Virus genome (UHGV): UHGV-1351982
Origin: a virus
DNA: 64,000 nucleotides
Direction: 5' to 3' (one strand)
The notes below the pieces were generated by a model, which saw nothing but the letters and a program-made list of their open reading frames with translations, ran no database searches and was not told where the DNA came from. Position 1 is the first letter of the stretch. Every line of letters begins with the position of its first letter. Below, one piece after another: positions 6,215 through 57,817 of this stretch. Made by a program: the position numbers and the translations under genes.

Positions 6215-7178
6215 TGTAAAAGACTTTATCAAACGTTGTCAAGAAGCGTACTACCAGGGAATGAGTCTTATTTCCGATGAAGAATATGATCGTCTGATTA
6301 AAAGATTCCCGTTAGAGGAAGAAATCGGGCCGAAAGGTGATATCCCTCATTTGTATCGTATGTATTCTTTACAGAAAGTCTATTACGATCGTGGTGATAA
6401 AGCTCCATTTAACCCATTAGGTCAGGTTGAAACTGATAAGTTAGATGGTTGTGCGATTTCTCTATTATATATTAATGGTGAATTTGTTCAAGCGTTAACT
6501 CGTGGTAACGGTATTCTAGGGAATGATGTAACGCATAACGTTAAGATGCTGAACATTCCTAAAACTATTTCCCAAAGAGTACCAACTCAAATCACTGGTG
6601 AAGTTCTCATTACTAAAGAAGTAGAGAACAAACGTAACTACGCTTCGGGTGCTATTAACCTGAAAGATAGTGATGATTTCATACAACGTATTGGTGAAGG
6701 TGGTTTAATCTTCGTTGCATATGGTATCCAGTGTTCAGCGGAAACAGTCGGTATTACAGAAGCCTATTTAAAAGATATGCTTTGGCTAGAGAATGAGAAC
6801 TTCTTGACAGTTGTTAATGTTCGTTCCTTTTTTAAATGGATTCCGACGGACGGTAAAGTTGTTCGTATTAACGACAACAATAAATTCTTCCGTGAAGGTT
6901 GGACTAATAAATTTCCTCGTGGTGCATTTGCTATTAAAGAGGATGAAGAAGGCGAAATTACCACACTTGTTAAAGTTGAATGGCAAGTAGGGGCTTCTGG
7001 TAAAGTAACTCCAGTTGGTTATTTCGAGCCGGTGATTATTGATGATGCCACAATTGTTAAAGCAACTCTTAATAACGTTGATTATATTAACGCTCTCGAT
7101 TTAGAGATCGGTTGCCAGATTCGAGTGATTCGTGCTGGTGGTGTAATCCCTTGTATAGTAGAGCGAGTATACGACTAA
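6198..7178 (+). CDS. NAD-dependent DNA ligase, adenylation-domain subunit (ligase subunit A)
   Basis: 326 aa; KxDG adenylation motif (ETDKLDGCAIS); followed by a separate ORF carrying the Zn-finger/BRCT part; split ligase as recalled for T5. Exact start (TTG 6198 or ATG 6207) uncertain. Confidence 0.8.
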   Translation: MQTMNNVKDFIKRCQEAYYQGMSLISDEEYDRLIKRFPLEEEIGPKGDIPHLYRMYSLQKVYYDRGDKAPFNPLGQVETDKLDGCAISLLYINGEFVQALTRGNGILGNDVTHNVKMLNIPKTISQRVPTQITGEVLITKEVENKRNYASGAINLKDSDDFIQRIGEGGLIFVAYGIQCSAETVGITEAYLKDMLWLENENFLTVVNVRSFFKWIPTDGKVVRINDNNKFFREGWTNKFPRGAFAIKEDEEGEITTLVKVEWQVGASGKVTPVGYFEPVIIDDATIVKATLNNVDYINALDLEIGCQIRVIRAGGVIPCIVERVYD

Positions 7179-7320
7179 TTCGTAACCCTTTGCTACCCGT
7201 TTACCGTGTCGGAATTATAAAGTGGTTATTGACATTTTCGCCGCTTAGGTATATACTATTATCATTCAGTTGAGGGATAGAAAGTTATGGCGAGGGTAAG
7301 CAAAGTTAGTTAAAATTGTA

Positions 7321-7351
7321 GTTGCTAAATGCTTAAATACTTGCTATAATA
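7321..7351 (+). promoter_or_regulatory. sigma70-type early promoter (TTGCTA -35, TGCTATAAT -10) inside the split ligase locus
   Basis: 17-bp spacer; conserved downstream box ATTTATATAAATTGATAAGGAAG. Confidence 0.7.
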
Positions 7352-7380
7352 TTTATATAAATTGATAAGGAAGAAATTTG

Positions 7381-8160
7381 ATGAAAATCGAAATTCCAAC
7401 ACAATGTCCCTCTTGTGGTTCTAAGCTAGATCTTGTCAACGGGCAATTATTCTGTAGGAATAAGTCCAACTGTCCAGCGCAATCAAGTAAGTTAATCGAG
7501 AACTTCTGCACAAAAATGAAGTTAAAGGGCTTTGGCCCGAAAACTATTGAGAAGCTGGAGCTGACTAAGATCTCAGAACTGTTTTACCTGACCGAAGAAG
7601 ATTTGGTCGGAGCTGTGGGTAGCAAGGTTGCCGCTAAATTGATTAGCGAGTTAAATACTAAGGTTCGCGGAGACATTGACTTTGGTTCAGTTCTCGGTTC
7701 TTTAGGAATTCCTCTTATTGGAGAGGTTGCAGCAAAGAAACTGTCCCAAAATTGCACTAGCTTCCACGATGTGAAGGCTGACGGCAAGGCTGGAGAAAAT
7801 TACAAAACCTGGCTAAATTCCCCACAAGGCAAGGATGTTATTGAATTACCGTGGAAATTCTCAACAGGTATTCGAGGTGCTAAAGCGGATATCATCATTA
7901 CAGATGATTTAGTTGCCCAGCCAAATGGAATCACGGTCTGTATTACCGGATCTTTGCAAGATTTTGCAAATCGAACGGATGCAACAAACTATTTAGAAAG
8001 TCTAGGATATACGGTTAAGAAGTCCGTTACCAAAGACGTCAAATACCTAATCTGTGAGGATGAATCAAAACGTTCTTCCTCATCTTATAAGAAAGCCGAA
8101 ACGAATGGGATAGAAATCCTGTCGATTAAAGAACTATTGGAGAAAAATAATAATGTCTAA
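7381..8160 (+). CDS. NAD-dependent DNA ligase, C-terminal subunit (Zn finger / HhH / BRCT-like)
   Basis: Track ORF 7378-8160, ATG at 7381 after AAGGAAG; Cys4 motif (CPSCGS...CRNKSNCPAQ); own promoter upstream. Confidence 0.75.
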   Translation: MKIEIPTQCPSCGSKLDLVNGQLFCRNKSNCPAQSSKLIENFCTKMKLKGFGPKTIEKLELTKISELFYLTEEDLVGAVGSKVAAKLISELNTKVRGDIDFGSVLGSLGIPLIGEVAAKKLSQNCTSFHDVKADGKAGENYKTWLNSPQGKDVIELPWKFSTGIRGAKADIIITDDLVAQPNGITVCITGSLQDFANRTDATNYLESLGYTVKKSVTKDVKYLICEDESKRSSSSYKKAETNGIEILSIKELLEKNNNV

Positions 8161-8920
8161 ACTGAACTGGAACGTAGAAGGTGTAACCGAGTCTCTGAAA
8201 GCAAAAGCCACTGCTCTGGGTGTTGCTGTAATCTCTCAAGAACAAGTAGCTGCTATCGCTGCTGAACTGGCTACCGAGACTGGTAAAGACGTTACCGCTC
8301 GCTCTGTTGGCTCTAAGCTGCGTAAAGAAGGTTTCGAAGTACAGAAAGCAAACGAAGTACAGAAATCCCCGTGGACTCCTGAGCAGGAAGCTGAACTGGT
8401 TGATTTCCTGAACGCTCATGCTGGTCAGTATACTTACGCTGAAATCGCTGCTGCTGTAGCTGGTGGTCAGTTCGGTGCTAAGCAGGTACAGGGTAAGATC
8501 CTGAGTCTGGAAATGACTGCTTCTGTTAAGCCAACCGAAAAAGCTGCTGCTGTTCGTTCCTTCACTCCTGACGAAGAAACTGATTTCGTTAATCAGGTTG
8601 TTGCTGGTGCTACTATTGAAGCTATCGCTGCTCACTTCGGTCGCAATATTAAGCAGATCCGTGGTAAAGCTCTGAGTCTGCTTCGTGAAGGTCGTATCGC
8701 TGCTATGCCGGTACAGGAAACTTCAAGTGCTAAAACTCGTGAAGATCTGTTAGAAGGTCTGGATCTGGCTAACATGACTGTTGCTGAGATCGCTGAGAAA
8801 ACTGGTAAGTCTGAGCGCGGTGTTAAATCTATGCTGTCTCGTCGTGGTCTGGTTGCTAAGGACTATGATGGTGCCGCTAAGCGTGCTAAACTGGATGCAA
8901 AAGCTGCGGCTGCTGAATAA
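8153..8920 (+). CDS. DNA-binding protein with four tandem HTH-like repeats (possibly abundant early protein)
   Basis: 255 aa; four ~60 aa internal repeats each with an IAxxxG...K HTH-like core (e.g. TVAEIAEKTGKSERGVKSMLSRRG); host-optimal codon usage. Confidence 0.6.
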   Translation: MSKLNWNVEGVTESLKAKATALGVAVISQEQVAAIAAELATETGKDVTARSVGSKLRKEGFEVQKANEVQKSPWTPEQEAELVDFLNAHAGQYTYAEIAAAVAGGQFGAKQVQGKILSLEMTASVKPTEKAAAVRSFTPDEETDFVNQVVAGATIEAIAAHFGRNIKQIRGKALSLLREGRIAAMPVQETSSAKTREDLLEGLDLANMTVAEIAEKTGKSERGVKSMLSRRGLVAKDYDGAAKRAKLDAKAAAAE

Positions 8921-8937
8921 TCTGGTAAATTAAACCT

Positions 8938-8970
8938 AAGGGGAGGGGGCTATGCTCCTTCCCCTTTTTG
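8938..8970 (+). terminator. intrinsic terminator
   Basis: GC-rich hairpin (AAGGGGAGGGGG...CCTTCCCCTT) plus TTTTTG, directly after gene 8153-8920. Confidence 0.6.
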
Positions 8971-9002
8971 CATTTAGAAGGCACGAAAGCGTGCAAAGGA
9001 GA

Positions 9003-10475
9003 ATGACCTTGTTTAACGTGCAAGCTGTAGTGTTGAAGATGCTTCTCGCTTCTGAACAGAAGCAAATAGCATTGGAAACATTCTCAAAACTGCATAAAGA
9101 TCATTTTAATGACGCTTTCTCCTCAATTTACCAAGCCGTCCAGAATTATTATAAGAAATATAACGCAATGCCGTCCATTGACGCACTGATGCTTGAGGCC
9201 AATAGGAACGCCCGCCTTTCTCAAGCTCTTGTCGTCTTAGCTAACACTCAAATTCCAGAAGTGAGCATGGAACAGGCGCTTGAAGTCCTAGAAGCCGAAT
9301 ATACACAGGATCTATTCCTGAAACTTCTAGAAACAGACGTGCTTCAAGATTTAACAATGCTGGATCAGGGAGAAATTCTCAACCGAGTTGCCTCCCTTCA
9401 CTTAAAATTAGAAGAGAAAGTAACGAATACTGGAAAGGTATTCAACGCAGACACAATGCGTATTTTCCAGAGAGAAGAAGATACCAAACTGAACTTGATC
9501 GCTCTTGGTATTTGTAATGAGTTCGACGCTCAAATTGGTTTAGCTCGCACAGAAACGTTACTGCTTGGTGGTTGGCGTGGTACTGGTAAATCCATTATCT
9601 GTTCAAACATACAGGTTCAGCAATATTTGAATGGAGACATTGCTCCATATTTCTCAATTGAGATGAAAGAGCACGAAGTGTTTAGACGTAATCTGGCTAT
9701 GTTAGCTGGAGTATCTGCATTAGCAATGCGTAATAACACTCTTGAAGGTGCTGCTCTGTTGAGATTAGCCAGAACTAGGGCTAGAATGTTTAATGGTGGT
9801 GAAGAGCTTTTCGATAACTTCGTTAAGCAATACACTATGGCTAAAATGAGTGACTTCTATGATATGGAAAGTAAACTCCTTGAAGGCTATGAGCTTCACA
9901 CTCCTATGATCATCGTTTACGATCCTGAACTGTCTATTACGACGGTTGACGTAGAATTAAATAAACTAGTTGCTAAATATGGTGATAAGGTTACTGTAGC
10001 TCTTCTAGACTATATTAACCAAACAAGACTTCCAGATTCAAAGACCATTGATATGTATGACTGGAAAGAACAGATGGTTGTTAGTTCATCTTTCAAATCT
10101 ATATGCCAGAAACATAACGTGGCTGGTGTTGCCCCTTACCAGATTGACCAAGATGGTAGAACGCGTATGTCTAAAGGGATTCTTGATTCCGCAGATATGG
10201 CTGCTAATCTTAACGCTGCAAAAGCTGATAATGGTCAAGGTGCTATTATGTTTGATTTCGTTAAGACTCGTTCCTCTGATAGTGTGAAGTTTATGCCTAA
10301 GATGAACTGGGAAACTCTACGAATGGATAACACTACCAACCTAGCAATGGAAGATATTGCGCAAATGGAAGCTGAGTTCGTTATTCCTATTGAAAAGGAT
10401 AAACCAGCTCAACCTAAACGTGCTAAGAAAGACAAAGCTGAAAATTCAACAGGTGAACAGGCCAGCGATATATGA
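9003..10475 (+). CDS. replicative DNA helicase (DnaB-like)
   Basis: Track ORF 8952-10475; ATG 9003 follows AAAGGAG and clears the upstream terminator hairpin; P-loop GGWRGTGKS; immediately precedes primase. Confidence 0.75.
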   Translation: MTLFNVQAVVLKMLLASEQKQIALETFSKLHKDHFNDAFSSIYQAVQNYYKKYNAMPSIDALMLEANRNARLSQALVVLANTQIPEVSMEQALEVLEAEYTQDLFLKLLETDVLQDLTMLDQGEILNRVASLHLKLEEKVTNTGKVFNADTMRIFQREEDTKLNLIALGICNEFDAQIGLARTETLLLGGWRGTGKSIICSNIQVQQYLNGDIAPYFSIEMKEHEVFRRNLAMLAGVSALAMRNNTLEGAALLRLARTRARMFNGGEELFDNFVKQYTMAKMSDFYDMESKLLEGYELHTPMIIVYDPELSITTVDVELNKLVAKYGDKVTVALLDYINQTRLPDSKTIDMYDWKEQMVVSSSFKSICQKHNVAGVAPYQIDQDGRTRMSKGILDSADMAANLNAAKADNGQGAIMFDFVKTRSSDSVKFMPKMNWETLRMDNTTNLAMEDIAQMEAEFVIPIEKDKPAQPKRAKKDKAENSTGEQASDI

Positions 10476-47233: not shown

Positions 47234-47340
47234 CGCTAATTTGACTTTTGCCAAATCTCATAAGATTACACATGAAGGTGTGCCCAGAGGTTCCCTAGAT
47301 GAGAATGAGTCTCATTACCGCCCCCTTACTTAGCAAGCTA

Positions 47341-48969: not shown

Positions 48970-50634
48970 TTATGCAAAGAATTTACCGTTCTTAAAGTCA
49001 ATCAATGTTCTTTGACCGTTTGCATAGGTAATTAAATGCGTTTGCGTCCAGCTTGACGCGCCCACGTTGTAGCCCATATCAAGGGAACCAGCAACGCCAG
49101 CGGTATAAACGCCGCCGTAAATGCTAGCCGTATGAGTATGACCAGTGTTAAGGCGTCCCAACTTTTTAAACTGCTTAGGATTGCCCCGACTGCCGTTAAT
49201 GCCATTGTGACCATGTACGCCGCATTCAATGCCAGCGATTTTAAACGACTGGTCAGTAGTCAGGAAAATAGCGTTAAATTCGCAACCTGCGACACTACGC
49301 AAGGCGTAATCTAGCACGTTAAAAGTATCATCCTTTTCAGCAATAGCGGCGTATATAGCAGCGTTTAGACGGTGATACAATTCCGCGTTTGCGGGATCGT
49401 CTTTAATGTTAGCGTTACGATCATCTAACCAGCGGGATAAAGCTAAATCATGGTTAGATTCAACAATGATTGTTTGAGAGAAATCACGCTCCATTGATTC
49501 TAATACGCGTCCAGTGTCGATAAGATCATCTAGAACCTTGTCACGTCCTGCGGCGTACTGTTTAGCAAGGAATACACCACTAGCGCGGTTGTGATGGTTA
49601 CGCGATGTAAAATCATGCACATCATGAATAAACTGATATTTAGGCTTGAGAATATCAAGCAAGCTGTTTTCACTAGCCCATGAAGCAACGGCGCATTCAT
49701 CATCTAATTTTTCGGCGTGAATATCACCATATTGCAAGCCTAGAACATGATCGGACGTTTCAAAACATCCGGTAGGCATAGCGCAAACATTCAAATCATA
49801 AAACATTCCGCTTTCGTCCATCGTTTCAAGCTGACGAACAAAAAATTCGCCGTCGTCGTCAAATTCTACCAGCAAAGCGCCGAAATTATGTAAAGCCTCG
49901 GCCTTTTGTCCTGCCTTTTGCTGGATATAGTTTTTAAGCGTAGCCGTTCCGGTTGAATACATACGGCGCACTACTTCACCTTTTAACGCTGGCACACTTT
50001 CAGCGGTAATTTTAGCGTGACCAATTGCCAGACCTTCAATATTTAAAGCCGTGGCGGTTTCTGCGAATCCTGAAAGCGGATAGTCTGCCGTTGGTAACAC
50101 GTTAATTTCAGCCATGAAAGCAAAACGGCGATTATTTAAAAATACGTTTTTCTCGCAAATATATTTATTAAATGCGGGATCGTATTTAATGCCTTCGTTA
50201 CCTTCTCCATTCTGGAAGCCGTTTTTATTGTAAATGAATTTACTAACCAGCAATTCACCGCCGATATATTCAGCGAATTTTTCCAGACTTGCTAAAAAGT
50301 TTTTATGCGGGAAAGTATTATTTTGAATCGACGTTAGAATAAAACGGCGACCGGATTTAACTTCCCACTGTTCCACGGTACTAGAAACAATTCCCGCCGC
50401 TTCGGGGCGATCATCATTTTTAATCGCCTTTTCAGCTTTTGCCGCTTTCGGTTTTGCTGGCTTATTTGCTTCCAACCAATCGCAAATTGCGGTTGAATGT
50501 TTCGTTGTATCGTAAACAGCTTTTGATATATCGTCGCAAACTTCCAGCTTAGTAGCGCGTAAACGTTTACCGTAGAAATTAAAATCAGCGGCAAGTTTAA
50601 CGATCTGGGCTTGTTTTTCTGCGGAAATATTCAT
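48970..50634 (-). CDS. A1: A1-like pre-early protein, metallophosphoesterase fold
   Basis: 554 aa (T5 A1 recalled as ~556 aa); calcineurin-type motifs (SDH, GDIH, ESNHD, GHTHT). Confidence 0.8.
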   Translation of the reverse strand: MNISAEKQAQIVKLAADFNFYGKRLRATKLEVCDDISKAVYDTTKHSTAICDWLEANKPAKPKAAKAEKAIKNDDRPEAAGIVSSTVEQWEVKSGRRFILTSIQNNTFPHKNFLASLEKFAEYIGGELLVSKFIYNKNGFQNGEGNEGIKYDPAFNKYICEKNVFLNNRRFAFMAEINVLPTADYPLSGFAETATALNIEGLAIGHAKITAESVPALKGEVVRRMYSTGTATLKNYIQQKAGQKAEALHNFGALLVEFDDDGEFFVRQLETMDESGMFYDLNVCAMPTGCFETSDHVLGLQYGDIHAEKLDDECAVASWASENSLLDILKPKYQFIHDVHDFTSRNHHNRASGVFLAKQYAAGRDKVLDDLIDTGRVLESMERDFSQTIIVESNHDLALSRWLDDRNANIKDDPANAELYHRLNAAIYAAIAEKDDTFNVLDYALRSVAGCEFNAIFLTTDQSFKIAGIECGVHGHNGINGSRGNPKQFKKLGRLNTGHTHTASIYGGVYTAGVAGSLDMGYNVGASSWTQTHLITYANGQRTLIDFKNGKFFA

Positions 50635-51018: not shown

Positions 51019-51435
51019 TTATTCACCTGCGGCCTGTTTTACTTCCTCCGCTACGCCTAACAATTGCGCTACGGCGTCCAGCGTTTCCAGTTTTGCACTT
51101 TCCAGACTTGCCAAATCGTCGGCATCTTTTACAATGCCGCTATCAATGGCATGTTTAGCAATGACGCGCACATAGTGAGCTTTACGGACAGAGCTACCGC
51201 CGCCAACTTTACGCGGTTTATCGCTTTTCTGATAGGCTTTTGCACTGGCCAATTTAGAACGTACAGAAACAGGGGACGCAGCGCCAACGGCGGCGGCAAT
51301 TTCTTTTAAGCCGTCACTATTCGCAAACTCAATCCCGCTTTTAGCAACCATTTCAGAGTACATAGAAACAGCTTTTTCGGTGTTTTCTTCGTTCCAAGAG
51401 AATTTTGCGGTTTTTTCGGTTTTAACGTTAGACAT
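51019..51435 (-). CDS. A2: A2-like pre-early protein (putative DNA-binding)
   Basis: 138 aa; immediately upstream of A1 homologue in transcript order; size consistent with T5 A2. Confidence 0.6.
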   Translation of the reverse strand: MSNVKTEKTAKFSWNEENTEKAVSMYSEMVAKSGIEFANSDGLKEIAAAVGAASPVSVRSKLASAKAYQKSDKPRKVGGGSSVRKAHYVRVIAKHAIDSGIVKDADDLASLESAKLETLDAVAQLLGVAEEVKQAAGE

Positions 51436-51951: not shown

Positions 51952-52170
51952 TCAAGCGTTTTTTAAACTTTTTTCGATTTGATGTGAGTTATATAAATCA
52001 ATCATTATATTACGCCACACCATTTCCAGACCTTGCTGCTTACCTTTCTTGTATTGCTTGAATCTGTATTTTACAGATCGTTGCGCTACTGTCAACAAAT
52101 TTTTTGTTCTGCTATCCAGTGGGCTAGCAGGTTTTGCACTAATCACTAAAGCGTTTTTTGATTTGATCAT
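51952..52170 (-). CDS. small basic protein (possible DNA-binding)
   Basis: 72 aa, Lys/Arg-rich; flanked by 25-bp inverted repeats. Confidence 0.45.
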   Translation of the reverse strand: MIKSKNALVISAKPASPLDSRTKNLLTVAQRSVKYRFKQYKKGKQQGLEMVWRNIMIDLYNSHQIEKSLKNA

Positions 52171-52203
52171 TATCGTCGATTCCTTATAATGTATAAGTTT
52201 ACC

Positions 52204-52243
52204 GCCGATAGGCTTTAAGATGTTCCCTAGTTTTTAAAGAGCA
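52204..52243. repeat. composite repeat B'(inverted)+A
   Basis: GCCGATAGGCTTTAAGATGTTCCC is the reverse complement of B (2 mismatches), followed by a direct copy of TTTTTAAAGAGCA. Confidence 0.55.
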
Positions 52244-52560
52244 TGGCGGTAAACTTCCCCGCCGTGTAATCTTGCGTTTCGTTTCCGTCCCGCCGTCCTA
52301 CGAGATAAATAATAGGGGATTCCCGAAAATGGCGCAACCTTATTTTTGTAAAGAAACGTAAAGAAAACCACTACCCGCACCACGGCAAGCGGCGCACTAA
52401 GTTTAATGAAACAGGCGCGCGAATAACACTAAAACAACCACTTTAGCAAGTAATTTTTTCATTTATATCTGCTCTAGGGTACTTGACAAAATCTAAAATC
52501 CTCGTGGTGAGGTTTTCTCGGTGTACCCCTTATGATTGCCTATCTTTTCCTTTGATGCGC

Positions 52561-52587
52561 TTAGAATCGCTTACAGAGCGTTTTAGA
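52561..52587. repeat. ~27-bp direct repeat, copy 1 (TTAGAATCGCTTACAGAGCGTTTTAGA)
   Basis: Near-identical copy at 56302-56329. Confidence 0.6.
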
Positions 52588-52799
52588 CCCTGTTAATAAC
52601 TTATACAAAAAGCAAAAATGAAATTTAATGAGTTATCCACTTGATTTTTCAAAAAAGTATTTTCTGCTGTTATTTTTCATTGACAAATAAGTTTAGACGT
52701 GCATTGATTGGTTAGCAGACTAACAATCGCTAGGATAATAATCACGCTGGTGGATTGTAACAGCCGAAACAGTTAGCAGACTATTAATACTCTAAAAAC

Positions 52800-52834
52800 C
52801 TATTAGCCAACTAACTATTTCATATTATATAATA
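52800..52834 (+). promoter_or_regulatory. orphan promoter-like element (TATAAT at 52828-52833) in a non-coding region
   Basis: Matches the conserved -10 plus downstream box (TATAATATACTTATAAATTAAAGAGA) but no ORF follows for >400 bp; -35 weak. Confidence 0.35.
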
Positions 52835-52904
52835 TACTTATAAATTAAAGAGAAATAATAACTATAAGAAACTATCGGCTAAGTGAGAACCACTATCATT
52901 TAGG

Positions 52905-52974
52905 TTATTCACAAAGTTATCCACAGCACAAAATAACTTGACGCAATAGGCGACGTTTTGGCGACTTATCCACA
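52905..52974. promoter_or_regulatory. DnaA-box cluster (TTATTCACA 52905-13, TTATCCACA 52917-25, TTATCCACA 52966-74)
   Basis: Two perfect and one near-consensus 9-mer matching the E. coli DnaA box TTATCCACA, inside an ~1 kb non-coding region. Confidence 0.6.
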
Positions 52975-52994
52975 GACTTATGTACAGGTTATCC

Positions 52995-53014
52995 TACTGT
53001 ATAAATATACAGGG
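52995..53014. promoter_or_regulatory. LexA-type SOS-box-like palindrome (TACTGTATAAATATACAGGG)
   Basis: CTGT-N8-ACAG with AT-rich core, next to the DnaA boxes. Confidence 0.5.
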
Positions 53015-53261
53015 TAGAATGGTAGCAGTAACAACCGCAATCAAATTTAAGCGGCCTAGAACGCGCTACACGGCGTTTTCTCACTGCTACCCTTATTATA
53101 ATAAAGCCTTGTGTACGCTTACAGAGAGCTAGAAATAGAAAACGCGCGGTTATCATAAAAACAGGCAGTAGGCAAGGAATAAAAAACCTTTTCTTTTTTC
53201 TTGCCCATAGTGAACAAATATCTATATCATTCACTCACCGATTAACGAGGGAGGCAAAGAA

Positions 53262-54281
53262 ATGTCTACTGTAAGAATTGCAGTGCCAGCAAACGCAACT
53301 ATTGTTAAAGGTAGTTTGCGCAACCTGCTAGATGGTAGTAGTGCGGCAAGTATTCAGCACACCGCTACTATTGTAGAAAAGATTCACGATGAAATTTTAG
53401 ACAATAATGATACTCATTATTCAGTTGATGATTTCACGCTATTACTAGACCAGACAAGGGCGCTAGTAATTTTCAACCGTGATTATCACATTTTCCGTAA
53501 TAGTCGGGGAACTGATATTGATTTTATCATTGTTGGTTATAGTGAGTCTCATAGTGGTTACATTGCGCGATTATATAACGTGCAAGAAAAGGAGCAGGTA
53601 ACAGCAACAAAAGTAAATAATATCCGGCTGGATAGTGTCGGATCGTTATTAAATAGTATCTGGCGTGAATTATCCTCAAGCTATAAAGGTGCGGATAGTG
53701 ACGCAATCGAAACAACTGGCGTATTGTGTTTTGAAAAGTCAACGGGTAACATGTTGATCCCTAGCGATTATTTAGGGTATGGGAATGAATCAAACGTTGC
53801 AAACGCTGGATTTACACTTTTCCCGCTTGACAATGTAACAAAACAGGCTGTAAACTCTCAAACTTCAAGCGCAATTGCGCAAACTACTGAAAATAAAGGA
53901 AATAACACTATGTCTAAAGTAACCGCTATCGTTGCCGCTAATAAATCCGCCGCCGCTACCGCTGCAAAACTGGAAGCGGGTAAAGTAGCACTAACTCAGC
54001 TTACAAAAGTAGCGGCTAAAGCCCTGCCTTCTGGTATGGCTGGCATGTTCGCTAAACAGTATTTAGATACTCCGGTCGGGCGCGTTGTTGTTGCCAACTT
54101 GTTAAATCTGGCAATCGAACAATACGCACCGAATAACCAGAAAGCGCGAATTGTTGCTAAAGCCGCAATGGATGCCGCAATGCTGGAAGTGGTACAGAGT
54201 TTCAATATTTCTGAAATGATCGACAAGGCAATCGAGGGAATCAACATTGATGCTTTGACTGCTAATATTTCAGAAGAGTAA
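53262..54281 (+). CDS. hypothetical pre-early protein
   Basis: 339 aa; GAGGGAGG RBS; Ala-rich C-terminal half; intrinsic terminator downstream. Confidence 0.6.
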   Translation: MSTVRIAVPANATIVKGSLRNLLDGSSAASIQHTATIVEKIHDEILDNNDTHYSVDDFTLLLDQTRALVIFNRDYHIFRNSRGTDIDFIIVGYSESHSGYIARLYNVQEKEQVTATKVNNIRLDSVGSLLNSIWRELSSSYKGADSDAIETTGVLCFEKSTGNMLIPSDYLGYGNESNVANAGFTLFPLDNVTKQAVNSQTSSAIAQTTENKGNNTMSKVTAIVAANKSAAATAAKLEAGKVALTQLTKVAAKALPSGMAGMFAKQYLDTPVGRVVVANLLNLAIEQYAPNNQKARIVAKAAMDAAMLEVVQSFNISEMIDKAIEGINIDALTANISEE

Positions 54282-54289
54282 TAATAACA

Positions 54290-54325
54290 AGCGGGAATTA
54301 ATTTTCCCGTTTTCTTCCCTTTTAG
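54290..54325 (+). terminator. intrinsic terminator
   Basis: Hairpin CGGGAA-TTAATT-TTCCCG followed by TTTTCTTCCCTTTT. Confidence 0.65.
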
Positions 54326-54339
54326 TTAGGAGACTAATT

Positions 54340-54831
54340 ATGTTTGGTAACAGAAATTATGGCAACCCTATTGAAGCACGATCCCTTAATCATGACGCAA
54401 TTGTATTCACTCATGCGTCTACCGGTTATTGTGGATCAGATGGGAATGATTATCATTTCGTTCCCGCTGGTGACGATATTGATGATCTATGTAATGAGGC
54501 AGGTTATGAAAATGCTTGCTCTTATGGTCTAGAAGTTATTGAAGTAGACGACGGCGAATATGAGGATAATGATAATATTGAATGCTCCGCTTATCATTAT
54601 CAGTTAAGTGAATCAGGTTGTTATATTGGCGGCGGCGATCCTATTAATTCCATCACTGAAATAATTATTGAAAATGGTGGCGTTTCGCTGAATGGTAACA
54701 AGGCGTTACTATATGCAAACCGATTAAAGCAACTTGTATATATTCCTGATGGGAAAGAATGGGAAGAATACAACGTTCTAATTGCAGAATTGAAAAGCTG
54801 TTTCGGCGTGGAAGTGGTAGAAATAGTCTAA
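54340..54831 (+). CDS. strongly acidic protein (candidate DNA mimic / anti-restriction)
   Basis: 163 aa; roughly 30 Asp+Glu against about 7 Lys+Arg, several Cys; AGGAG RBS; own terminator. Confidence 0.6.
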   Translation: MFGNRNYGNPIEARSLNHDAIVFTHASTGYCGSDGNDYHFVPAGDDIDDLCNEAGYENACSYGLEVIEVDDGEYEDNDNIECSAYHYQLSESGCYIGGGDPINSITEIIIENGGVSLNGNKALLYANRLKQLVYIPDGKEWEEYNVLIAELKSCFGVEVVEIV

Positions 54832-54845
54832 TGTAAAGTTTTGTA

Positions 54846-54875
54846 AAGGTCGCCCTAATCGGCGGCCTTTTTTGT
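54846..54875 (+). terminator. intrinsic terminator
   Basis: Hairpin GGTCGCC-CTAAT-CGGCGGCC followed by TTTTTTG. Confidence 0.65.
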
Positions 54876-54938
54876 TATAATGCCTTTACACCGAAACGGT
54901 GGATTGAAAATTTTCCCTGATTTCTAGGAGGCGTTAAA

Positions 54939-55169
54939 ATGGTTGCTTTCTCTTCTTCTGACTCCCTTTTCACTGGTAAAGGTTGGGTATCTAATCGCTG
55001 GATCATTGATCAAATGGTTTCGGAATTTGGGATTGGTAAAACTTATGTTACCATTCAGGCGCTTTATGATAATGACAAGATTGACCAGCAAACCGCCGGA
55101 TTTTTGCTGGATACGCTGAAAGCGGAACATTGCACTAAAAAGCAAGCGGCAAAAATTGTTTTAATGTAA
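54939..55169 (+). CDS. hypothetical protein
   Basis: 76 aa; TAGGAGG RBS 7 nt upstream. Confidence 0.55.
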   Translation: MVAFSSSDSLFTGKGWVSNRWIIDQMVSEFGIGKTYVTIQALYDNDKIDQQTAGFLLDTLKAEHCTKKQAAKIVLM

Positions 55170-55216
55170 TTAATAACGGGGCGTTACTTTCGCCCCTCAT
55201 TCCCTTACTAGGAGTT

Positions 55217-55435
55217 ATGCAAATGTTAAAGAATGTTTCCCTTGCCCGTTCTAAAGGTTTTAAGCTGGTGGATGTTAACACCTTCGAGCGTCCAGATTGT
55301 AAAATCGAATATGTAGCACGCAACAAAAACCCTTTCCGTGTTACAGAAAAGAAATTTGACAAGCGCGGCAATTTGATAGCCGAAACGGTTAAACACTTTG
55401 CTACTTTTTACGCTGCTTTTCGTGGGGTATTATGA
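55217..55435 (+). CDS. hypothetical protein
   Basis: 72 aa; TAGGAG RBS. Confidence 0.55.
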   Translation: MQMLKNVSLARSKGFKLVDVNTFERPDCKIEYVARNKNPFRVTEKKFDKRGNLIAETVKHFATFYAAFRGVL

Positions 55436-55544
55436 GATCCTTATATATTGCTCTAGCGTTTGCTACTGTTGGCGTTGTATGCTCATTCGCCGCATTTGTT
55501 TTAAAAATGTACATGATATTTTCCCAGCTTTAGGAGGTTGACAA

Positions 55545-55892
55545 ATGGTAATTTATGAGGGCAATCGTTTTGTTGCTAATTGCCGTCCGGCATTGTTAGC
55601 AAACTATTTAAATCAGCTTTCACCAGTTTATAAAGGCGTGGTTAATATCTATGAAGGCAAAGCACATTATAAAATTTCTGCCGTTGTCGCTCGCGAGCTT
55701 GCCTTTCAGTTTCTTACTTTTAACTCATGCGATATTCAGGTTATGGGTGAGCCATTAGTCGCAGAAAATGAAAATGAATTTATTGACATTTTCCGCAAAG
55801 TATGTACAGAGCGCCTGATTATGAAGGGCGCGTATATTCAATCAACCGCTGAAAGTATTGAAACAGCGTTTCGAAAAATTGTAAATGAATAG
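55545..55892 (+). CDS. hypothetical protein
   Basis: 115 aa; TAGGAGG RBS. Confidence 0.55.
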   Translation: MVIYEGNRFVANCRPALLANYLNQLSPVYKGVVNIYEGKAHYKISAVVARELAFQFLTFNSCDIQVMGEPLVAENENEFIDIFRKVCTERLIMKGAYIQSTAESIETAFRKIVNE

Positions 55893-56018
55893 CTGGTGGC
55901 GAAAAACACAAAGCCATAAATCTAATAATACCGCTGGGAAACATTCCCAGCGTTTACGATTTGGTAATGGCTGCGTAATGATATTGATAATCATCCTCAT
56001 TCTAGGAGCGATGGCGTT

Positions 56019-56213
56019 ATGAGTGATAAAATTGTTGTAACTAAAACTACTGTTACCGTTGATACTTTCTTTGTGCCTGATACGCTGGAAAATCGGCAAT
56101 TAGTCGAGCGTGGCGATTATGACAAAGTGATATATGATGGGGATGGATACTATCAACATTTGGTAGACTCCTACGGCGAAAGCGAAAAGATCACACATCG
56201 ACTACCAGACTAA
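56019..56213 (+). CDS. hypothetical protein
   Basis: 64 aa; TAGGAG RBS; terminator downstream. Confidence 0.5.
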   Translation: MSDKIVVTKTTVTVDTFFVPDTLENRQLVERGDYDKVIYDGDGYYQHLVDSYGESEKITHRLPD

Positions 56214-56216
56214 TAA

Positions 56217-56250
56217 TAACGGGGCGCAACTATCGGCCCCGTCTTTTCTG
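56217..56250 (+). terminator. intrinsic terminator closing the pre-early + cassette
   Basis: Hairpin ACGGGGC...GCCCCGT followed by CTTTTCT. Confidence 0.55.
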
Positions 56251-56301
56251 GCCTTCCTCAAATTTCCCCTTATTAAAATACCTCTTCCAAAAATAAACGC
56301 G

Positions 56302-56329
56302 TTAGAATGCGTTACAGAGCGTTTTAGAG
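56302..56329. repeat. ~27-bp direct repeat, copy 2
   Basis: TTAGAATGCGTTACAGAGCGTTTTAGA, matching 52561-52587. Confidence 0.6.
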
Positions 56330-56358
56330 CTATATTAGAGTTATTCACTACGCAGGAA

Positions 56359-56378
56359 TACTGTATAAATATACAGTA
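56359..56378. promoter_or_regulatory. LexA-type SOS-box-like palindrome (TACTGTATAAATATACAGTA)
   Basis: Near-perfect match to the LexA consensus TACTGTATATATATACAGTA; second copy, in inverted module. Confidence 0.55.
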
Positions 56379-56398
56379 GAATAATCTGTTGATAAGTC

Positions 56399-56468
56399 TG
56401 TGGATAACGCCTCAAAATCGCTAGGATTTTGTCAAGTCAAATCGTGCTGTTAATAAACCTGTGGATAA
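56399..56468. promoter_or_regulatory. DnaA boxes in inverse orientation (TGTGGATAA at 56399-56407 and 56460-56468)
   Basis: Two perfect reverse-complement DnaA 9-mers; with the LexA-like box they form an inverted copy of the 52.9-53.0 kb module. Confidence 0.6.
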
Positions 56469-56499
56469 CTTAAATAACAGTGTTTCTCACTTCGCTTTG

Positions 56500-56640
56500 T
56501 AAATGCGAGTCATTCTCATTATCATTCGCGTTTCCCTTCCTAAATGCAAATCATTCTCATTCGTATTCCGGTAGTCAAATGATAACTATTCTCATTCGCA
56601 TTCAACTTCTCAAATGCGAATCAATCTCATTATCATTCGC
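56500..56640. repeat. four tandem ~30-bp dyad-symmetric iteron-like repeats
   Basis: AAATGC(G/A)A(G/A)TCATTCTCATT(ATCATTCGC) units at about 56500, 56542, 56575 and 56610, each with an internal GCGA..TCATTCGC inverted repeat. Confidence 0.6.
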
Positions 56641-56680
56641 ATTTCGGCAGGCAGGGCATTTTCTATTTGCCCTGCGCTTT

Positions 56681-57281
56681 TGTGCAAATCCGACATTTGC
56701 CCCCACGGATTACGTGCCAGCGTGTATGTGCGAATCCGACAATTTTTGGTAGTGTGCAAATCCGACCCGAAATATTTTTATAGTGTGCGAATCCGACAAT
56801 GAATTTCCCTAAAAACTCCAGCAATCTCGAACTGCGATCGAATCCTGTGGGATATGCGCAAATCCGACATGAGTTTGCTAGGAGACAGATTTATGGTTTC
56901 AGGAATATTTTTGTGACTTCGATGAGAGGGTGTGTAATTGTGTGAGTTTGGGGAGAAGTGCGAATCCGATGAGGTTTTGGGAGGAACTATGAGAGGAGCA
57001 GCGGTGTTGGTGCTTTAGCACCGATTTGCTGCGTTTTTGGGGATAATGTGAGATGTTTTGGGATAATTGGGCGTGGGGTGAGATAAAGTGAAATTTTATT
57101 AGTTAAATGGGGCAAAATCGCTTGACAAGTGAAAATTCCTGTGTCCCTAAAAACTCAGGCAATCATGGGCCTTCGGCCCGAAATAATGCTGCTATTTTCA
57201 GGAGATTATGTGCTCATGAAAACTTAGGCAATTGTGCAAATCCGACCAGTTTTTAAACTTATATCAGTGTGCAAATCCGAT
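56681..57281. repeat. eight dispersed copies of the 13-mer GTGCRAATCCGA(C/T)
   Basis: Copies at about 56681, 56727, 56754, 56784, 56855, 56958, 57232 and 57266, in a region with no convincing ORF. Confidence 0.65.
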
Positions 57282-57817
57282 AGCAATTTCCAGAAATGTG
57301 TTTTCAAAAAATGTTGTCTAGAAATAACCGCCCTCCCCATAACCGCCCTGTATTAACCGCCTATTGCTGGAGTTTCTAGGAACATGAAAACCGCCTGAGT
57401 TAATGGGAGTTTTCCTAGAAACTTAGGAGTCTAGAAGAAAGTGTTGTGCCATCCTAGCAGATGAGCGGCAACAGGTGTATCATCTTGAACGTTAATTTAT
57501 CTATTTAACAGTATTAGTTTTTATATAAGTATAAGATCCCCAAGGGTTCTCATATAGAGCTTTGCCCCCGCCAGAAGGTCTCGTGATGTTTCTAGTAATC
57601 TTTATTAAATTACTTGTTGACTTGTCCTGTCGCTCCGTAACCTACGCTACAAGTCAGTAATTTAAGATTCCTGAACCACCACACCTTCTGTGTGGCAACT
57701 CTAAATGGTTAATTCTATTAACTCATAGAGTTATGATAACATACATTTAGCTATCTGTCAACGAGAGTTTGTATCTGAGTCTCGGTACAGGTATTGTGCA
57801 CCGAGACATGCAGGATC

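Follow-up and report, generated by a model that had tools for sequence, protein, structure and literature searches.

We analyzed a 64,000-nucleotide (nt) stretch of the virus genome UHGV-1351982 (the window) with a focus on 53262-56213, where six consecutive open reading frames (ORFs) form a compact block. This block is very probably the rightward pre-early unit of a T5-like Epseptimavirus, encoding accessory host-takeover effectors that act separately from one another. The block has already been described in T5 and its relatives, and it is best pictured as a string of exchangeable one-gene modules with one or two promoters, not a coupled operon. A sequence-only reading of the same DNA had placed small, individually translated host-manipulation genes here, most of them without an assigned biochemical function, and that description stands. 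The further proposal of an undescribed system does not: the T5.011-T5.017 arm has been discussed (bioRxiv 10.1101/866236), screened for toxicity one gene at a time (PMC8201957; bioRxiv 10.64898/2026.04.02.716235), and deleted wholesale in T5. Nor does the block behave as a single system, since its genes are gained and lost independently among relatives.

Identity and position of the block

A megablast search with window positions 53000-56500 retrieved 444 phage records, nearly all T5-like and from Salmonella or Escherichia hosts. The best matches (95.8-95.9% identity, 98% query coverage) were Salmonella phage 1-29, E. coli phage NG_S8, and Salmonella phage EH3, all members of the genus Epseptimavirus, family Demerecviridae. 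Judged by sequence, the window is T5-like Epseptimavirus DNA. The block aligns collinearly with the 9982-bp terminal repeat annotated in phage Stitch, whose position 1 corresponds to window position 47282 and whose repeat ends at ~57150. This alignment locates the block within the long terminal repeat, in first-step-transfer DNA and to the left of the injection-stop repeats, in agreement with the earlier pre-early placement. The cassette occupies the + strand and diverges from the A2-A1-dmp unit, the orientation that had been reported. Given the collinearity with the Stitch terminal repeat and the location of A1 and A2 on the - strand, we assign 53262-56213 to the rightward half, or right arm, of the first-step-transfer (pre-early, terminal-repeat) DNA, the counterpart of T5 genes 011-017.

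All six ORFs were recovered at the coordinates and on the strand originally called, and their sizes held with one adjustment: ORF4 is better read as 70 amino acids (aa) from position 55223. Two further ORFs, of 33 and 45 aa, had been missed. The coding features are as follows.

53262..54281, + strand: ORF1, 339 aa, orthologue of T5.011 (DUF7566)
54340..54831, + strand: ORF2, 163 aa, T5-like (Demerecviridae) first-step-transfer family without a T5 counterpart
54939..55169, + strand: ORF3, 76 aa, orthologue of T5.012; phrog_5145
55223..55435, + strand: ORF4, 70 aa from the second ATG, orthologue of T5.014; phrog_4227
55432..55533, + strand: 33-aa ORF, hydrophobic, one predicted membrane span
55545..55892, + strand: ORF5, 115 aa, orthologue of T5.015
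55885..56022, + strand: possible 45-aa ORF, basic N-terminus and hydrophobic C-terminal tail
56019..56213, + strand: ORF6, 64 aa, acidic, orthologue of T5.017; phrog_6973
48970-50634, - strand: A1
51019-51435, - strand: A2

Chance ORFs were considered and rejected, as all six belong to conserved phage protein families. Searches of the eight ORFs against NCBIfam, Pfam (also at an expectation value, E, of up to 10), and PADLOC returned no match besides DUF7566 for ORF1, and PHROGs offered only "unknown function" families plus a misplaced nickase label. Two of the ORFs have described relatives: ORF1 is a member of DUF7566, and ORF5 is the orthologue of T5.015, a protein of published mechanism.

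Several observations concern the surroundings of the block. From the Stitch alignment, the physical left end of the genome would lie at ~47282 and the end of the terminal repeat at ~57150, so the assembly appears to have both terminal repeats collapsed and the genome circularly permuted. The divergent spacer between the two pre-early units (52200-53200) comprises ~1 kb of non-coding DNA, and hegG, the HNH homing-endonuclease gene that splits this spacer in T5, is absent from it. An Rfam search of 52000-57800 gave no match.

T5 counterparts and mosaic gene content

Comparison with T5 (NC_005859, where genes 011-017 span 6495-9157) matched five of the seven genes T5.011-T5.017 as orthologues, at 47-93% identity and in the same order. 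The 76-aa protein is 89% identical to T5.012 and the 64-aa protein 78% identical to T5.017; counterparts of T5.013 and T5.016 are absent from the window. The two right arms occupy the same place between DnaA-box inverted repeats, run opposite to A2-A1-dmp, and share a conserved promoter ahead of the 011 gene. They differ in that a 163-aa gene with no counterpart in T5 lies between 011 and 012 in the window phage, whereas T5.013, T5.016, and hegG are missing from the window phage, which instead has the 33- and 45-aa hydrophobic ORFs at other junctions. Other Epseptimaviruses (1-29, Stitch, SmurfNell, SuperGirl/Bas29) show 89-96% DNA identity to the window and the same gene order; Stitch encodes 115-, 64-, and 33-aa proteins identical to those found here.

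The T5 right arm has been the subject of direct experiments. Mahata 2021 cloned T5.002-T5.017 and found 008, 011, and 015 to be toxic (PMC8201957). In the right arm, Annor 2026 reported toxicity for 011, 013, and 015 and none for 012, 014, 016, and 017, with 013 causing lysis-like damage and 015 causing elongation; T5 deleted for hegG-017 is viable (bioRxiv 10.64898/2026.04.02.716235). Set against the six ORFs of the block, these studies supply a mechanism for one of six, a phenotype for one of six, and a non-toxic result in T5 for three of six, with the 163-aa protein outside the T5 screens. The outcome that would have undone the sequence-only reading, six well-characterized proteins, is not what these studies show.

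Gene content varies among Stitch, 1-29, T5, TrudiGerster, GSW6, SmurfNell, and PECP14, and several relatives insert extra small ORFs after 011, 012, or 015. It is because of this mosaic content, together with the survival of T5 after deletion of the whole arm, that we favor an array of independent accessory effectors. The six genes might instead be pictured as one coupled multi-protein system, either a pathway or a complex, for they share a strand, tight spacing, a common junction motif, and two ATGA or overlap couplings. Against this, the genes are gained and lost one by one (T5 has 013 and 016 in place of the 163-aa gene; TrudiGerster and GSW6 lack 012). Single T5 genes also give distinct phenotypes when expressed alone, and 015 requires only the host protein Ung. 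We consider a coupled system highly improbable.

Translation signals and the junction motif

The strong TAGGAG-type ribosome-binding sites described earlier are present throughout. ORF1 has the site GAGGGAGG at 53247-53254, 7 nt 5' of its ATG, and ORFs 2-6 have TAGGAG(G) at 54327, 54925, 55209, 55531, and 56003. On the + strand of the 64-kb window, TAGGAG with an ATG 4-10 nt downstream occurs eight times, five of them in the 3-kb block, and the junction motif TTCCC-N2-14-TAGGAG occurs four times, always in the block. The clustering of TAGGAG in the block exceeds chance and is no general habit of the phage. For ORF4, the start is most likely at 55223 rather than 55217, because TAGGAG is separated from the first ATG by 2 nt, against 8 nt for the second, and the alignment with T5.014 begins at the second Met.

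The two additional ORFs are tightly interleaved with their neighbors. The 33-aa ORF overlaps the ORF4 stop through an ATGA, and its own TAG stop falls within the TAGGAGG of ORF5. It is annotated in several other Epseptimaviruses and is 94-100% conserved, with 9 synonymous versus 4 non-synonymous codon changes among relatives. The 45-aa ORF overlaps ORF5 at its stop codon and ORF6 at its start codon and has hairpin H5 within it; the frame is uninterrupted in six relatives, the ORF is annotated in GSW6 and SmurfNell, and its 27 synonymous versus 25 non-synonymous changes give no clear coding signature.

Recurrence of the same "stop codons - hairpin - TTCCC - TAGGAG" arrangement may be what makes the genes exchangeable modules, and junctions of this kind would account for the mosaic gene content among relatives. 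A similar organization is found in the hyperplastic regions of T4-type phages, where PeSL cassettes consist of small accessory early genes flanked by repeated stem-loop regulatory modules and gene content at the junctions is shuffled among relatives. The module in the window is distinct, combining a hairpin with TTCCC and TAGGAG; a promoter-like element is present at a single junction, and there is no sequence relation to the T4-type elements.

Hairpins and promoters

The transcription signals of the block are listed below.

53201..53230, + strand: sigma-70-type promoter from a promoter scan, -35 TTGCCC, 18-nt spacer, -10 TATCAT, A/T-rich upstream tract
54289..54312, + strand: hairpin T1 with a T-rich tail, after ORF1; terminator-like, z=-2.98
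54845..54870, + strand: hairpin T2, then TTTTTTG, after ORF2; z=-3.13
54873..54881, + strand: extended -10 element TGTTATAAT, directly after T2; a perfect match, read from the sequence
55178..55196, + strand: hairpin H3, G+C-rich, after ORF3, poor T-run
55932..55952, + strand: hairpin H5, 9-bp stem, G+C-rich, then TTTACGATTT, after ORF5, poor T-run
56219..56242, + strand: hairpin T6, then CTTTTCT, after ORF6; closes the rightward unit

The promoter 5' of ORF1 aligns, with its hexamers conserved, to the annotated T5.011 promoter (T5 6411-6489), and the promoter upstream of T5.011 is cited as experimentally characterized by Annor 2026 (bioRxiv 10.64898/2026.04.02.716235). A second, internal promoter for ORF3 onward (the 012-017 genes) has a candidate in TGTTATAAT, which is conserved in all seven relatives compared, T5 included. 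This element has no -35 match and was for that reason not listed by the promoter scan.

The earlier proposal that most genes carry their own intrinsic terminator is half borne out: it fits the sequence after ORF1, ORF2, and ORF6, where 54289-54312, 54845-54870, and 56219-56242 each combine a stem with a T-run. It does not extend to ORF3 and ORF5, whose hairpins (55178-55196 and 55932-55952) have the stem and a poor T-run, or to ORF4, where the spacer contains no hairpin and folds no better than shuffled sequences (z = +0.94). T2 is the strongest canonical intrinsic terminator of the block and is near-identical in all relatives compared. A hairpin follows the 011 gene in 7/7 relatives: in the six with the 163-aa gene it is of the T1 type, although the stem varies in sequence, and T5 has the T2 module. 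In T5, the T2 module therefore stands directly 3' of T5.011, where the window phage has hairpin T1, a ribosome-binding site, and the 163-aa gene. Relatives carry either the same hairpin or one of different sequence at the H3 position. H5 recurs in Stitch and GSW6, and an extra gene takes its place in other relatives. T6 and H3 have a common TAATAACGGGGCG module, and T5 has a putative terminator annotated 3' of T5.017 (9275-9296).

Inverted-repeat arms and the injection-stop region

The cassette is bracketed by a pair of inverted-repeat arms.

52878..53012, unstranded: left arm, equivalent of T5 IRC-spacer-IRD; DnaA boxes TTATCCACA at 52917 and 52966; palindrome CTGTATAAATATACAG
56361..56495, unstranded: right arm, equivalent of T5 IRD'-spacer-IRC'; DnaA boxes at 56399 and 56460 on the - strand

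The arms are 135 nt long and 75% complementary, and each contains an exact 18-nt copy of TACTGTATAAATATACAG. Perfect DnaA boxes (TTATCCACA) number four in the window, two per arm, so that 4/4 lie in the arms. The T5-like hallmark of bracketing by ~131-bp inverted repeats with paired DnaA boxes is thus present. The IRC/IRD inverted repeats with DnaA boxes were described for T5-like phages by Davison, according to whom the ~3 kb of enclosed coding DNA diverges strongly and shows numerous insertions and deletions (bioRxiv 10.1101/866236). An invertible segment was also considered and rejected: no recombinase is present, the similarity between the arms is only 75%, and every relative retrieved is collinear.

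The segment could matter mainly in cis, through the DnaA-box inverted repeats in the injection stop, with the genes as passengers. The confinement of all four perfect DnaA boxes to the arms would fit such a role, as would the better conservation of the inverted repeats relative to the enclosed coding DNA and their occurrence in nearly all T5-like phages. The distance from arm to arm, however, varies widely among phages, and the ORFs belong to conserved protein families. Transcription of the pre-early genes is reported for the related phage Bas33, where proteomics detected ten of the encoded proteins (PMC13250531), and several of the ORFs are active when expressed alone. We regard a chiefly cis-acting segment as quite improbable, while noting that the two roles are not exclusive.

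The injection-stop-type repeat region begins at 56361. Its repeat field (56484-57284) consists of three ~51-nt units (56484-56645) followed by eight TGTGCGAATCCGACA-like 17-mers (56681-57284), and 56484-57284 holds no convincing ORF.

The predicted Ung-dependent nickase is ORF5, not ORF4

T5.015 binds Ung and nicks the abasic sites that Ung creates, and the inactive mutant K85A/K94A/K111A is no longer toxic (Mahata 2021, PMC8201957). ORF5 aligns along its full length with the 114-aa T5.015 (87.5% identity over 112 aa, E=5e-74), and lysines 30, 39, 43, 85, 94, and 111 are present in both proteins. We identify ORF5 as the orthologue of T5.015 and the predicted Ung-dependent abasic-site nickase of the window phage. 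The two proteins are of the same length class and K85/K94/K111 are kept; Ung binding and activity of ORF5 are predictions.

This assignment conflicts with current annotation. PHROG 4227 and many RefSeq/GenBank phage records name the 70-aa protein, here ORF4, as an [quoted passage not shown]. ORF4 is a basic protein (isoelectric point, pI, about 10) that is 93% identical to T5.014. The published 015 must be longer than 70 aa because the mutated residues are K85, K94, and K111, positions that the 70-residue T5.014 does not reach. The primers with which Annor 2026 cloned 015 encode MVIYEGNRF...FRKVAQ (bioRxiv 10.64898/2026.04.02.716235), in agreement, and we reject the 70-aa ORF4 as the Ung nickase. 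In UniRef, the 114/115-aa cluster bears the name "DNA-(apurinic or apyrimidinic site) endonuclease". Another T5 record (Q5DMS9) calls the 70-aa T5.014 "ORF015", and this naming is the likely source of the mislabel. A sequence search of the PDB with the 115-aa and 70-aa proteins found no relative.

Domain organization of the T5.011 family

ORF1 belongs to Pfam DUF7566, scoring 415 bits against a gathering cut-off of 27 (profile positions 1-332 of 336, E=3.8e-124). T5.011 is toxic in E. coli (Mahata 2021, PMC8201957) and disturbs nucleoid organization (Annor 2026, bioRxiv 10.64898/2026.04.02.716235). ORF1 and T5.011 share only 47% identity, and the differences cluster in the N-terminal domain. 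The predicted layout comprises a confident alpha/beta N-domain (1-190), a disordered linker (191-236), and an Ala-rich helical C-domain. Across 23 homologues, the N-domain is 36-97% identical to that of the window, and the C-domain occurs as one of two discrete alleles (99-100% or 64-66% identity), independently of the N-domain. Such independent combinations indicate that the T5.011 family is a shuffled two-domain protein, with recombination at the linker.

A conserved AAAGGA-N6-9-ATG was observed at Met217 (53910) of ORF1, and, speculatively, this residue could be an internal translation start. Many UniRef homologues of ORF1 are labeled "DNA N-6-adenine methyltransferase". We reject this label for ORF1, which has no methyltransferase domain, S-adenosylmethionine motif I, (D/N/S)PP(Y/F/W) motif IV, or Rossmann fold; a single GenBank record, that of phage STG2, seems to be the source from which the name spread.

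The acidic ORF2 family and counter-defense

ORF2, the 163-aa protein, contains 30 Asp+Glu versus 7 Lys+Arg (pI 4.05, net charge about -23), a strongly acidic surface of the kind found in Ocr/ArdA-type DNA mimics, and no sequence or fold relation to these known mimics was found. Relatives were found in 333 phage records, among them T5-like phages that infect Klebsiella or Pectobacterium, and structural matches reach phages of Pectobacterium, Pantoea, and Vibrio. The family diverges fast, with 44-86% identity among close phages; the window allele is found at >=99% identity in only six phage records, among them 1-29 and NG_S8, and is ~52% identical to the Stitch-type allele. A profile search of 1.8 billion sequences yielded 31 cluster representatives, all small proteins, with no informative fusion among them, and no fold relative was detectable. 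Some family members have a Cys-rich zinc-ribbon-like insert (CPxC...CxxC) in the acidic loop at about residues 68-80. Since the gene is missing from T5, ORF2 fell outside both T5 toxicity screens.

These properties invite a reading of the block as mainly a counter-defense island, in which the 163-aa protein and the ORF1 N-domain would mimic DNA or inhibit restriction, RecBCD, or other nucleases. The charge and rapid divergence of ORF2 fit this idea, as does the arms-race pattern of a variable ORF1 N-domain beside a fixed C-domain in an accessory, mosaic block. In addition, T5-type first-step DNA reportedly protects against RecBCD and restriction, with no gene assigned. The Pfam and NCBIfam searches nevertheless brought no family match in support, and PADLOC, which models defense rather than anti-defense, was also null. 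Moreover, Epseptimaviruses, unlike Tequintaviruses, are reportedly sensitive to restriction-modification, and for this reason general anti-restriction is an unlikely function for an Epseptimavirus gene missing in T5. On balance, we hold a mainly counter-defense island to be unlikely. With similar reserve, ORF2 may tentatively be viewed as a novel type of early effector, such as one that mimics or inhibits a host nucleic-acid enzyme or defense, that is swapped through the hairpin-TTCCC-TAGGAG junctions; we would give this the lesser chance.

Proposed mode of action and implications

In our favored reading, that of a rightward pre-early unit of separately acting effectors, each gene would be translated from its own strong Shine-Dalgarno site, and the intergenic hairpins would attenuate or stabilize the transcript. 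The 115-aa protein would bind the host uracil-DNA glycosylase and nick abasic sites in dUMP-containing host DNA, leading to arrest of replication and division, as shown for T5.015. The 339-aa DUF7566 protein would disturb nucleoid organization, a phenotype taken from T5.011. The 33- and 45-aa membrane peptides may fill the niche of T5.013; the 76-, 70-, and 64-aa proteins would be non-toxic modulators, and the 163-aa protein is a putative effector.

Several points weigh against this reading. Expression timing, promoter use, and termination are carried over from T5 and Bas33, and the part played by the junctions in recombination is deduced from seven relatives. Binding of Ung and nicking of abasic DNA by ORF5 are likewise predicted from homology. 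Only three of the five hairpins have the look of a canonical terminator, and five of the eight ORFs have no assigned function.

As a discovery, the block matters little, given that the T5.011-017 arm has been screened and deleted by several laboratories. What remains useful is the correction of the nickase annotation, the 163-aa family, and the domain-shuffled 011 family. The nickase mislabel, which is present in PHROGs and many phage records, will misdirect automated annotation as well as researchers who set out to clone the Ung nickase of a T5-like phage. For the toxic 011 family, the variable N-domain joined to two fixed C-domain alleles suggests a route to its target. The ORF2 family, which is found in other Demerecviridae, is a reasonable target for anti-defense or host-factor screens.

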